DNA from: Escherichia coli
GTDB lineage: Bacteria > Pseudomonadota > Gammaproteobacteria > Enterobacterales > Enterobacteriaceae
Length of the DNA: 64,000 bases
Direction: 5' to 3' (one strand)
NCBI RefSeq assembly: GCF_046105845.1
Contig: NZ_CP151004.1
Translations under genes and position numbers: made by a program
Part shown: positions 47,069 to 64,000 of the stretch, piece by piece
Layout: the number at the start of each line of letters is the position of its first letter
Numbering within the stretch: position 1 is the stretch's first letter
Notes under the pieces: generated by a model
Told to the model about the DNA's origin: nothing
Seen by the model: the letters and a program-made list of their open reading frames with translations, nothing else
Database searches by the model: none

Positions 47069-49077
<2,009 letters not shown>

Positions 49078-54169: not shown

Positions 54170-54262
54170 TGCGATGTTGACACGTCTTATCCTTCAAAGT
54201 CGGATGCGACGCTGACGCGTCTTATCCGACCTACAGTTGGCACGCATCCGGCAATGTTGTAA
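54170..54262. repeat. REP / IRU-like palindromic repeats
   Basis: GTCGGATGCGACGCTGACGCGTCTTATCCGACCTAC and adjacent GCACGCATCCGGCAATG. Confidence 0.65.
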
Positions 54263-59659: not shown

Positions 59660-61201
59660 ATGGCTTTTGCCTCATTAATTGAACGCCAGCGCATTCGCCT
59701 GCTGCTGGCGTTATTATTCGGTGCCTGCGGAACGCTGGCCTTCTCTCCTTACGATGTCTGGCCTGCGGCGATTATTTCGCTGATGGGGCTTCAGGCGCTG
59801 ACCTTTAACCGCCGTCCACTCCAGTCTGCCGCTATTGGCTTTTGCTGGGGATTTGGCCTCTTTGGCAGCGGTATTAACTGGGTCTATGTCAGCATCGCGA
59901 CTTTTGGCGGAATGCCTGGCCCGGTTAACATCTTCCTGGTGGTGCTGCTGGCGGCGTATTTGTCGCTGTATACCGGACTGTTTGCTGGCGTGCTGTCGCG
60001 CCTGTGGCCGAAAACCACCTGGCTGCGCGTGGCGATTGCCGCCCCTGCTCTCTGGCAAGTGACCGAGTTTCTGCGCGGTTGGGTGCTGACTGGTTTCCCG
60101 TGGTTACAGTTCGGCTATAGCCAGATTGATGGCCCGTTAAAAGGGCTGGCACCAATAATGGGCGTGGAAGCCATTAACTTCCTGCTAATGATGGTTAGCG
60201 GCCTGCTGGCACTGGCGTTGGTCAAACGCAACTGGCGTCCGCTGGCGGTGGCCGTCGTGCTGTTCGCCCTTCCCTTCCCGCTGCGTTACATCCAGTGGTT
60301 TACCCCGCAACCGGAGAAAACCATTCAGGTTTCGATGGTTCAGGGCGATATTCCGCAATCACTGAAATGGGACGGAGACCAGCTTCTTAATACGCTGAAG
60401 ATTTACTACAACGCAACGGCACCGCTGATGGGCAAATCATCGTTGATTATCTGGCCGGAGTCGGCGATAACCGATCTGGAAATTAATCAGCAACCGTTCC
60501 TCAAAGCACTGGACGGTGAGTTGCGCGATAAAGGTAGCTCGCTGGTAACCGGGATTGTTGACGCGCGTCTCAATAAGCAGAACCGCTACGATACTTACAA
60601 CACCATCATCACGCTGGGGAAAGGTGCGCCGTACAGCTACGAATCAGCCGATCGCTATAACAAAAACCATCTGGTGCCGTTTGGCGAGTTTGTCCCGCTG
60701 GAGTCGATTCTGCGTCCGTTAGCGCCGTTCTTTGATCTGCCGATGTCGTCGTTCAGCCGTGGGCCATATATCCAGCCACCGCTGTCGGTAAACGGTATTG
60801 AGCTTACTGCGGCTATTTGCTACGAGATCATTCTCGGCGAGCAAGTGCGTGATAACTTCCGCCCGGATACCGATTATCTGCTGACTATCTCCAACGATGC
60901 ATGGTTTGGTAAGTCTATTGGTCCATGGCAGCACTTCCAGATGGCGCGAATGCGTGCGCTGGAGTTGGCGCGCCCGCTACTGCGTAGCACCAACAACGGC
61001 ATTACGGCGGTGATTGGTCCGCAGGGTGAGATTCAGGCGATGATCCCGCAATTCACCCGCGAGGTGTTAACCACTAACGTGACGCCGACTACCGGACTTA
61101 CACCGTACGCACGTACCGGCAACTGGCCTCTGTGGGTGCTGACGGCACTGTTTGGTTTTGCTGCTGTGCTGATGAGTCTGCGTCAGCGACGTAAACGTTG
61201 A
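59660..61201 (+). CDS. lnt: Apolipoprotein N-acyltransferase
   Basis: 513-aa [50 protein letters not shown]...; C-terminal nitrilase-like domain. Confidence 0.96.
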
Positions 61202-61333: not shown

Positions 61334-63211
61334 TTACGGTTCAGGGATACAAGCCACATTGCCATATTGGGGATGACGAATAATTGCCTGCGGATCAAGC
61401 GAGCGCGTCCTGTCCAGTTGGATTAACCCGTTCTTCGCCATAACAAATATTTTTCTACCATCCGCTGAAAAACGAAGGTGATTAACGTAGCTGGCAGGAT
61501 AAACGCCAATAATCTGCCCGGCATTAATATTGAGCTGGATGACATAACCTTGCAGGCCATATGACACCAACGCTAAATATTGACCGTCCGGGCTAATACC
61601 CTCAACGGAATAAACGCTCCTGCTACACCATTGCGTCATAATACTGGCTTGTTGATCCTCAGCTCTTATACGTGAAATCCCCTGGCTATCGGCAAAAATA
61701 ATCTCTCCATTTTTTGGTCGGAATCCCATCGCAGAAACGACACCACGCGCATCACCTGCGGGAAAGTCTTCTTTCTGATGCGTGATGGTATTGATGCGTA
61801 CAATGTCACCTCTGACCATACCGGGTATCAACAATGTTTTTTCATCCGGGGAAAGTGCCATAACCCAGGCACCAGGTTTATTACTCGTCCCCGTCCCGTC
61901 GTATTTCTCCAGCGGGATATCCGCCACATGCTGATAAGTCACCAGATCAATGGCTGACACACTATTACTGGTGCGATTCATCACCCAAGCTTTTGTGCCA
62001 TCACGCGAGAGGATAAGACTGTCAGGATGTGCACCGGTGGTAATCGACTGAATAATCTCCCCCGTCGCCACGTTAATGACCGATAACGCATTCGCTTCAA
62101 ATGAAGTCGCATAAAGCAACGTTTCATCCGGGCTTAGCGCCAGCGATCTGACGCCCTGATCTTTACAGCCACCACAATGTTTGACTGACTTTTCTTTCGC
62201 TATGGGGGCTGTAAAGGTATGCAGGATTTTCTTTTGTCCGAGGTCGAAAACAACAATGCTGTTGGTGTTTTCAATTGCGGCATACAACGTATTACCATCC
62301 CGACTGATCGCCATATCATGGATATCGGAAATCTCAGCGAGCAAATCACCACTGGCCTGTTCACGACTTACCGGAGCGGATAATGTTTCCCTGAGGGCGT
62401 TGCGTTCCTCCGCTAACTGCTGCTTTTTTTGCCGTCGCTCTTGTTCAATCTCCTGTGGATAAAACTCTTCACGCAGGCTTTGCCTGACTTGTAAAACTGA
62501 CTCACCCATCTGCTGCTGCGCAAGCCAGATAGCCCCGGTCAGAAGAAGACTACCCGCAACAATAATCCCGCCTTCCGTAACAAGCCGGTTTTGCCCATAT
62601 AAACGCGCACTCAGCCCCCCCATCGCGCCACCCGCAATCAGGCCGCCAATGTGGCAAGCGTTATCTATTCCTGTTTGCCGGGCACCGTACAACAGTGTCA
62701 GCGCCACCATACCCAGCAGAGGAAATACTCGCCGCTGGTTTTTATGGTGTGTGCCCGCACCTGAAGCAAGCTGTGTTGCTATCGCAGCGCCAGCTATTCC
62801 CATAATCGCCCCGGATGCCCCAACGCTGATGACTATCTGCTCACTTTCGCGTAACGCATAACAGGCACTGATTAGCCCACCAAAGACGCCGGAGAATAAC
62901 CAGATAATCAGAAGTCGCCATTTCCCCAGTATCCGCTCCGCCACTGCCCCCACCACCAGAAGTGCAAACATATTCATCAGCAAATGGGGAAAACTACTGT
63001 GCAGAAAGACACTGCTCAATAAGCGCCAGGATTCGCCCGACAACGTGAGAGAAGTAACGTTAGCACCGAGATGGATGAGTGCGGATTGATCGACTTCTTC
63101 ATAACTCATCCATTGTGCGAGGTAACAAAATATCCCAACACAGAGCGCAAAAAGGATAAGGGTTATTGCGGGTAATTGAACATTTAACGGCTTAACCGAA
63201 GATGCAGACAT
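61334..63211 (-). CDS. Rhomboid-family intramembrane serine protease fused to a C-terminal seven-bladed YVTN/YncE-like beta-propeller domain (625 aa)
   Basis: N-terminal part: seven hydrophobic segments, L1-loop WR (res 62-63), TM2 H-x4-H-x3-N (HSSFPHLLMN), TM4 GASGA (Ser133) and TM6 ACHIGGLIAG (His187), i.e. a complete rhomboid catalytic signature. C-terminal part (res ~300-625): seven repeats of the form SxDGxxLYV.N..SNsVSVID. RBS AAGGAAGAAA upstream. Family assignment by eye. Confidence 0.85.
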   Translation of the reverse strand: MSASSVKPLNVQLPAITLILFALCVGIFCYLAQWMSYEEVDQSALIHLGANVTSLTLSGESWRLLSSVFLHSSFPHLLMNMFALLVVGAVAERILGKWRLLIIWLFSGVFGGLISACYALRESEQIVISVGASGAIMGIAGAAIATQLASGAGTHHKNQRRVFPLLGMVALTLLYGARQTGIDNACHIGGLIAGGAMGGLSARLYGQNRLVTEGGIIVAGSLLLTGAIWLAQQQMGESVLQVRQSLREEFYPQEIEQERRQKKQQLAEERNALRETLSAPVSREQASGDLLAEISDIHDMAISRDGNTLYAAIENTNSIVVFDLGQKKILHTFTAPIAKEKSVKHCGGCKDQGVRSLALSPDETLLYATSFEANALSVINVATGEIIQSITTGAHPDSLILSRDGTKAWVMNRTSNSVSAIDLVTYQHVADIPLEKYDGTGTSNKPGAWVMALSPDEKTLLIPGMVRGDIVRINTITHQKEDFPAGDARGVVSAMGFRPKNGEIIFADSQGISRIRAEDQQASIMTQWCSRSVYSVEGISPDGQYLALVSYGLQGYVIQLNINAGQIIGVYPASYVNHLRFSADGRKIFVMAKNGLIQLDRTRSLDPQAIIRHPQYGNVACIPEP

Positions 63212-63368
63212 AAGGTGTTTCTTCCTTGAAAAGACAGGTAAAAAGCATTTTTCCCGTGTGCAGTTATCATCCCGGCAAACGTCCCATGCCGAAAAGATAA
63301 CTCTGTCCGAAATATGACTTTTTCAGCCTAAAATTACAATCGTAATTAATTCATCCCTAAGTATTTTT

Positions 63369-63384
63369 TGGCATGTAAGTTGCT
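63369..63384 (+). promoter_or_regulatory. Candidate sigma54 promoter upstream of gltI
   Basis: TGGCATGTAAGTTGCT: the GG and GC dinucleotides are spaced exactly as in the -24/-12 consensus TGGCAC-N5-TTGCW. Confidence 0.5.
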
Positions 63385-63665
63385 TTATTTACTGTGTAAG
63401 CAATGAAATCAGCCGCGACGCAACCGGGTTGCACCACCACAAATCAGCGGTAGCACCAAAAAGGTGCAGTTTAAGAATTTTGCTTCGGAATGGTGCGGCG
63501 CAACTCGCAAAAACAAACAATAAAACAGCAATATCTTTACATTTAGCCAAACTAAATGTTACCTAACAGGCACAACACTGCACAATAAAGTTGCAGACGA
63601 TAACAACACAAACACTCACAACGGGTATCCATGCGTTCTTAACGCAGAAGATAAAGGAGTTGGAT

Positions 63666-64000
63666 ATGCAATTACGTAAACCTGCCACAGCAATCCTGGC
63701 CCTGGCGCTTTCCGCAGGACTGGCACAGGCAGATGACGCCGCCCCGGCAGCGGGCAGTACGCTGGACAAAATCGCCAAAAACGGTGTGATTGTCGTCGGT
63801 CACCGTGAATCTTCAGTACCTTTCTCTTATTACGACAATCAGCAAAAAGTGGTGGGTTACTCGCAGGATTACTCCAACGCCATTGTTGAAGCAGTGAAAA
63901 AGAAACTCAACAAACCAGACTTGCAGGTGAAACTGATTCCGATCACCTCACAAAACCGTATTCCACTGCTGCAAAACGGCACTTTCGATTTTGAATGTGG
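63666..64000 (+). CDS. gltI: Glutamate/aspartate ABC transporter periplasmic binding protein, 3'-truncated by the window edge
   Basis: ATG at 63666 with AGGAG RBS; MQLRKPATAILALALSAGLAQADDAAPAAGSTLDKIAKNGVIVVGHRESSVPFSYYDNQQKVVGYSQDYSNAIVEAVKKKL...; signal peptide present. Confidence 0.92.
   Translation, partial: MQLRKPATAILALALSAGLAQADDAAPAAGSTLDKIAKNGVIVVGHRESSVPFSYYDNQQKVVGYSQDYSNAIVEAVKKKLNKPDLQVKLIPITSQNRIPLLQNGTFDFEC

Follow-up and report, generated by a model that had tools for sequence, protein, structure and literature searches.

A conserved sigma-54 promoter of gltIJKL in the rhomboid-linked allele of Escherichia coli, with NtrC-like sites inside its predicted leader

The element at 63369-63384 of the window (the whole 64-kb stretch of E. 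coli DNA that was analyzed) is very probably gltIp, the sigma-54-dependent, NtrC-activated promoter of the gltI-sroC-gltJKL glutamate/aspartate ABC-transporter operon, as carried by the rhomboid-linked allele of E. coli. This promoter is already known, and its recovery is a re-finding of textbook nitrogen regulation. Comparison of 81 sequences suggests that the NtrC sites in use would be three conserved sites centered at +43, +65, and +94, that is, a downstream enhancer inside the transcribed leader. We see about an even chance that this arrangement, a natural downstream enhancer conserved at gltIp, both functions and has not been described in that form before.

RESULTS

The promoter element and its score

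The 16-mer TGGCATGTAAGTTGCT lies at 63369-63384 on the + strand. In TGGCATgtaagTTGCT, the GG (63370-71) and GC (63382-83) doublets are exactly ten nucleotides apart, which is the spacing of sigma-54 (RpoN) promoters; the −24 element is TGGCAT and the −12 element is TTGCT. The element points to gltI, whose ATG (63667) is 298 bp from the first base of the motif and 283 bp from the last. On its other side, 158 bp separate it from the start, at 63211, of a divergent rhomboid-family ORF.

The window contains one match to the pattern TGGCAYN5TTGCW, with 0.25 expected; at least one match also turned up in 21 of 100 shuffled sequences, so this match is by itself weak evidence. Because the simple pattern is expected 0.25 times by chance, the site was rescored with a position-specific matrix built from 28 intergenic sigma-54 sites validated by ChIP-chip in Salmonella LT2 (Samuels et al., 2013; PMC3844500), with gltI left out. 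The 18-mer at 63369-63386 obtained 21.2 bits, the highest score of the 64 kb on both strands (runner-up, 15.3 bits). It surpassed 25 of the 28 training sites, a match at the level of validated promoters. According to the exact score distribution, 0.004 hits of at least 21.2 bits are expected per 64-kb window; the promoter site is real, far beyond chance. The original prediction had described an RpoN consensus match with correct spacing, about 280 bp before gltI and directed at it, and about 160 bp from the divergent rhomboid start, and these measurements agree with it throughout. At the sequence level, nothing expected of a sigma-54 promoter, or of a promoter in the Ntr regulon, is missing from the element.

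The next two matrix hits in the window were TGGCCTGCTTTATGCATT at 47230-47247 on the − strand (15.3 bits) and TGGCACGCATCCGGCAAT at 54238-54255 on the + strand (14.0 bits). About 0.4 hits of at least 15.3 bits are expected by chance per window. Intragenic sigma-54 sites have been reported in E. coli, and these two may be of that kind.

Published evidence for sigma-54 and NtrC control

Binding at the orthologous promoters has been reported several times. In Salmonella LT2, sigma-54 ChIP-chip identified TGGCACGTCTATTGCTTT at STM0665 (gltI) with a site score of 22.1 (PMC3844500). The sigma-54 ChIP-seq site OS04 of E. coli K-12, with motif TTGGCACATCTATTGCT, was among the stronger peaks and was marked as a promoter predicted in EcoCyc (Bonocora et al., 2015; PMC4591121). 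An NtrC ChIP-seq peak obtained in vivo was assigned to gltIJKL (PMC4066584), and genomic SELEX showed in vitro that the K-12 lnt-IS5 spacer is bound by the sigma-54 holoenzyme and by NtrC (PMC8743547).

Expression of ybeJ (gltI) is lowered in rpoN mutants of strains CFT073 and EDL933 (Switzer et al., 2022; PMC9017345). Our sequence check revealed the rhomboid arrangement and exactly the same 16-mer in CFT073, and therefore the allele of the window has published rpoN dependence. Regulation of gltIJKL by nitrogen through NtrC, which the original prediction had put forward, is borne out by the sigma-54 and NtrC binding at orthologues and by the rpoN dependence in CFT073. Occupancy by both proteins and dependence on rpoN are established in the literature for orthologues or for the identical allele, and the promoter sequence and its conservation are established here.

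Both a sigma-70 and a sigma-54 promoter have been described for the operon, and SroC, the sRNA derived from gltI mRNA, is induced by nitrogen limitation in pathogenic E. coli without an IS5 insertion (Miyakoshi et al.; PMC9731577). In Salmonella, the promiscuous activator DctD250 gave only 1.8-fold induction at gltI (PMC3844500). One paper names a "single gltIJKL promoter" in rich medium, which makes the sigma-54 promoter a conditional contributor.

The arrangement in K-12 is a special case. MG1655 has an IS5D insertion at the CTAA that corresponds to 63563-63566, 103 bp ahead of the gltI ATG, so that IS5D stands between gltI on one side and the sigma-54 promoter with the NtrC sites on the other. 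Because IS5 stands between OS04 and gltI, OS04 was assigned to insH3 (PMC4591121). The same split accounts for the weak nitrogen induction in K-12, where the insertion blunts the response of SroC (Miyakoshi et al.; PMC9731577).

Conservation of the promoter in Enterobacteriaceae

The species scan used one genome per species and included 80 loci from Escherichia, Salmonella, Citrobacter, Enterobacter, Klebsiella, Kluyvera, Buttiauxella, Cedecea, and other genera. TGGCA[CT]-N5-TTGC was kept in all 80 Enterobacteriaceae species, at 287-439 bp (mostly 290-300) before the gltI ATG, and the conserved promoters scored 15-22 bits. Conservation falls on fixed positions: the GG and GC doublets are invariant in the 80 species and the N5 spacer is variable.

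The predicted transcription start, placed 12 nucleotides after the C of the −12 GC, is 63395 (63393-63397, + strand), and the leader from there to the ATG would be about 272 nt. The same rule puts the NtrC sites at −140/−108 in glnAp2 and −121/−108 in glnHp2, which are the published positions and support the coordinate convention. The original prediction had anticipated a long leader. Since the promoter stays at its distance from gltI in 80/80 species, such a leader appears to be ancestral.

Two alleles of the upstream region in E. coli

The intergenic region of the window is 94-99% identical to E. coli genomes. E. coli is polymorphic at this locus: the rhomboid-linked upstream region was found in 3236 of 5426 complete genomes, and in the remaining ones, K-12 included, lnt directly adjoins gltI. 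The lnt-adjacent allele has TTTGGCACATCTATTGCTTT at the equivalent position, and close DNA similarity between the window and the lnt-adjacent genomes starts only at ~63421. Across 63340-63420, from the junction to about 63420, the alleles are strongly diverged, promoter spacer included (GTAAG vs. ATCTA), and beyond that point they are nearly identical. This pattern suggests that the alleles recombined long ago, with the boundary just within the putative leader.

The upstream DNA could be aligned neither between the two E. coli alleles nor among genera. The promoter core persists in two very different E. coli upstream settings, lnt-adjacent and rhomboid-adjacent, and is uncoupled from gltI only in K-12, by IS5.

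K-12 gltIp (OS04) and LT2 gltIp (STM0665) coincide with the promoter of the window in locus, orientation, and distance to gltI, and in having the same −24/−12 core followed by a conserved downstream leader with NtrC-like sites. Their spacers differ (TGGCAT-GTAAG-TTGCT in the window, TGGCAC-ATCTA-TTGCT in K-12, TGGCAC-GTCTA-TTGCT in LT2), as do about 50 bp on each side of the promoter. The upstream neighbor is the divergent rhomboid gene in the window and lnt in K-12 and LT2, and K-12 differs further by the IS5 between promoter and gltI.

The rhomboid neighbor

In the window, lnt is located at 59660-61201 (+) and the rhomboid-family ORF, divergent from gltI, at 61334-63211 (−), so that the rhomboid gene is inserted between lnt and the gltI promoter. 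The ORF has 625 aa; its N-terminal part contains a rhomboid domain (Pfam PF01694, residues 59-199), and its C-terminal region resembles a beta-propeller. Among the 83 loci examined, the gene occurred only in three from Escherichia. It is present in two Escherichia species besides E. coli, and it was absent from K-12 and from all the non-Escherichia genera sampled. In other genera, the lnt stop codon is 340-500 bp before the gltI ATG (up to ~890 bp in four loci), and in most of them only ~50-120 bp lie between the lnt stop and the −24 element.

The original prediction had proposed that gltI and the rhomboid gene may share enhancer or regulatory DNA. This idea found no support: the rhomboid gene is restricted to Escherichia, the upstream DNA is not conserved, and no NtrC-like site was detected upstream of the promoter in 81 sequences.

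The predicted leader and the start of gltI

In an alignment of 25 genera, the conservation of non-coding DNA in the leader peaks in a block at 63498-63566 (+), GCGCAcTTCGCAAAAAtAAACAAT ... TCTTTACAT..CTAAATGTTA. The block is better conserved than the flanks of the promoter and includes the palindrome GTGCGGCGCAC and the motif TCTTTACAT-N13-CTAAATGTTA. As judged from the alignment, this is likely the region of the proximal sigma-70 promoter or of sites for its regulators; a consensus scan of 63150-63720 found no sigma-70 promoter.

The proximal 5' UTR has a hairpin at 63578-63596, whose CTGCA/TGCAG stem changes to CTCGC/GCGAG in the Enterobacter group. It is followed by the C/A-rich element of the gltI 5' UTR, ATAACAACACAAACACTCACAACG (63600-63623, +), which is conserved across genera and serves as a target of the GcvB sRNA and as a translational enhancer (PMC4474525, citing Sharma et al., 2007). 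RNAalifold identified some compensatory pairs in a second hairpin (63632-63646), which lies close to the ribosome-binding site. The Shine-Dalgarno sequence AAGGAG is at 63654-63659, and the coding sequence of gltI, taken from the RefSeq annotation of matching E. coli genomes, runs from 63667 to 64000 (+), where it is cut by the end of the window. An Rfam search of 63100-64000 gave no match.

NtrC-like sites downstream of the promoter

The search for NtrC sites used TGCACCA-N3-TGGTGCA with up to three mismatches, over as much as 900 bp before the ATG, in 81 sequences. The original prediction had offered a search for NtrC-like enhancer sites upstream of 63369 as a check on its reading. The outcome was the reverse: none was found upstream of the promoter in the 81 sequences (at ≤3 mismatches and up to ~600 bp upstream), and all 104 matches were downstream, from +43 to +100, clustered at about +43, +65, and +94. 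As a control, the scan recovered the upstream sites of glnAp2, glnHp2, and glnK at their known positions. Reviews describe enhancers as usually 80-150 bp upstream; this canonical architecture is not the one found at gltIp.

Three sites in the window lie within looping distance of the promoter. Site A, TGCACCAccacaaatca (63430-63446, +; center +43), pairs a strong left half-site with a weak right one; its [T/C]GCACCA half-site is invariant across 25 genera, and in the K-12-type allele and many species the site departs from the consensus at no more than three positions. Site B, AGCACCAAAAAGGTGCA (63452-63468, +; center +65), has two mismatches and is the sole match in 64 kb to TGCACCAN3TGGTGCA with no more than two. 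Its GCAC and GTGCA half-sites are invariant across genera, its spacer varies freely, and it is present at +64 to +100 in nearly all of the 81 sequences. Site C, TGCTTCGGAATGGTGCG (63481-63497, +; center +94), has four mismatches in the window and three in several genera, and its TTTGC and GGTGCGG are invariant across genera. Invariant GCAC/GTGC half-sites with drifting spacers, as seen in the 25 genera, fit a site bound by a protein dimer. As the sites are invariant, covariation does not exclude a function at the RNA level.

The centers of sites B and C are 83 and 112 bp from the center of the promoter, and the corresponding distances at glnAp2 are 90 and 122 bp, on the opposite side. For IHF, only poor matches were found by eye between the promoter and the NtrC sites, and they were not conserved.

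Between the distal promoter with its NtrC sites and the ATG, no other sigma-54-like element of at least 10 bits was found on either strand in the 81 sequences. The best + strand score from the distal promoter to the ATG was at most 9.9 bits in all 81, with a median of 1.3. One proximal candidate, aGGCACaacacTGCAC at 63568-63583, was rejected: its GG-N9-GC spacing is one base short, it scores −5.5 bits, and its GG is not conserved, reading AA in CFT073, E. albertii, and other Escherichia and missing from other genera.

From the exclusively downstream matches, the upstream position of the control sites, and the lack of a second sigma-54 element, we infer that NtrC would activate gltIp from sites in the leader. 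Published NtrC ChIP-seq intervals were rejected as a means of locating the enhancer. At glnK, glnH, and rutA, they lie on the sigma-54 promoters themselves and not on the known enhancers (PMC4066584, PMC4591121), so these intervals do not resolve upstream from downstream binding at gltI. The position of the gltI NtrC sites was not found in the literature searched, which did not extend to Reitzer and Schneider (2001), Zimmer et al. (2000), or EcoCyc, where the downstream geometry may already be on record.

DISCUSSION

A model of gltIp activation

In the mechanism that we propose, RNA polymerase with sigma-54 would form a closed complex at TGGCAT-N5-TTGCT. When nitrogen is limiting, phosphorylated NtrC would occupy the cluster of sites, contact the polymerase through DNA looping, and open the gltIp promoter at the expense of ATP. 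Transcription would then begin near 63395 and produce a leader of ~272 nt that takes in the region of the proximal promoter, then the target of GcvB and the ribosome-binding site, before it reaches gltI. The very short upstream spacer between lnt and gltI may have imposed the downstream arrangement. The sites at +43 to +94 could instead tune the proximal sigma-70 promoter or serve as a brake.

Alternative readings

The idea that the motif is a chance match without function draws on the regular expression, for which 0.25 occurrences are expected per window, but the expectation with the matrix is 0.004 and the element is kept at a set distance in 80/80 species. Together with the ChIP and expression data for orthologues and the identical allele, this leaves the chance reading a negligible probability, and we consider it refuted by the conservation and the published binding data. 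It is also highly improbable that the true NtrC-dependent promoter is the proximal element at 63568-63583. Such a promoter would give a textbook geometry, with the NtrC sites at −103 to −154, and a GGCAC...TGCA string is present there, but the ChIP motif calls in both K-12 and LT2 point to the distal element. A further reading accepts the binding of sigma-54 and denies that it is productive: the site would hold a "repressive" or insulating closed complex that, for example, blocks read-through from genes upstream or damps the sigma-70 promoter. Many sigma-54 ChIP sites of E. coli have no associated transcript (PMC4591121), repressive sigma-54 promoters have been proposed by Shimada et al. (PMC8743547), and the 1.8-fold induction by DctD250 in Salmonella (PMC3844500) and the "single gltIJKL promoter" mentioned for rich medium would agree with this. 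We nevertheless judge it quite improbable, given that ybeJ (gltI) falls in the rpoN mutants of two pathogenic E. coli, one of them with the exact sequence, that SroC is processed from gltI mRNA and is induced by nitrogen limitation where IS5 is absent, and that a conserved NtrC-like cluster lies at looping distance.

A greater share of the doubt concerns the enhancer. The promoter may be real and the GCAC-N7-GTGC sites at +43 to +94 not its enhancer, which we regard as unlikely but deserving of serious weight. The sites would then have another role: control of the proximal sigma-70 promoter (NtrC has such a role at glnAp1), that of a "governor" or roadblock, or binding of a different regulator. 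Activation would come from weak, undetected upstream sites or from NtrC in solution. They are located ~80-140 bp upstream of the presumed proximal promoter region (63540-63570), canonical enhancers are upstream, and NtrC sites can be degenerate, so that a scan with three or fewer mismatches can miss weak ones. Against this, there was no upstream match in 81 sequences in a scan that recovered the controls, and the promoter has been kept although its upstream DNA shows no relationship from one E. coli allele to the other or from genus to genus. There is also no second sigma-54 promoter that the sites could serve, and the 83/112 bp spacing mirrors the 90/122 bp of glnAp2.

Comparison with known sigma-54 systems

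With glnAp2, glnHp2, and glnKp, gltIp has in common the sigma-54 core, the TGCACCA-N3-TGGTGCA palindromes, and two or three NtrC-like sites at 80-125 bp from the promoter center. It differs from them in the side on which the sites lie (+43 to +94, vs. −87 to −140 upstream in the other three) and in its leader, predicted at ~272 nt against 42-73 nt.

Activator sites on the transcribed side have natural precedents. The rocG gene of Bacillus subtilis has a downstream activating sequence for RocR at a sigma-54 promoter, and the ftr elements of Caulobacter are natural downstream enhancers of sigma-54 promoters for FlbD. In 1986, Reitzer and Magasanik reportedly moved NtrC sites experimentally downstream of glnAp2. 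These cases resemble gltIp in that the activator sites are on the transcribed side and looping is presumed. The rocG and ftr systems use other activators in other organisms, and the rocG element is more than 1 kb away. At gltI, unlike in the three precedents, the function of the downstream sites is deduced from sequence and conservation.

Significance

A genuine sigma-54 promoter was picked out from raw sequence by the first-stage reader, and its enhancer seems to be downstream of the start in every genus examined. The downstream-enhancer reading, if true, would be a modest addition to a known promoter and of moderate interest to specialists. It would provide a clean natural enterobacterial case of downstream activation of the sigma-54 polymerase, in which the polymerase must transcribe through its own activator complex, and gltIp would be a case for studying that passage.
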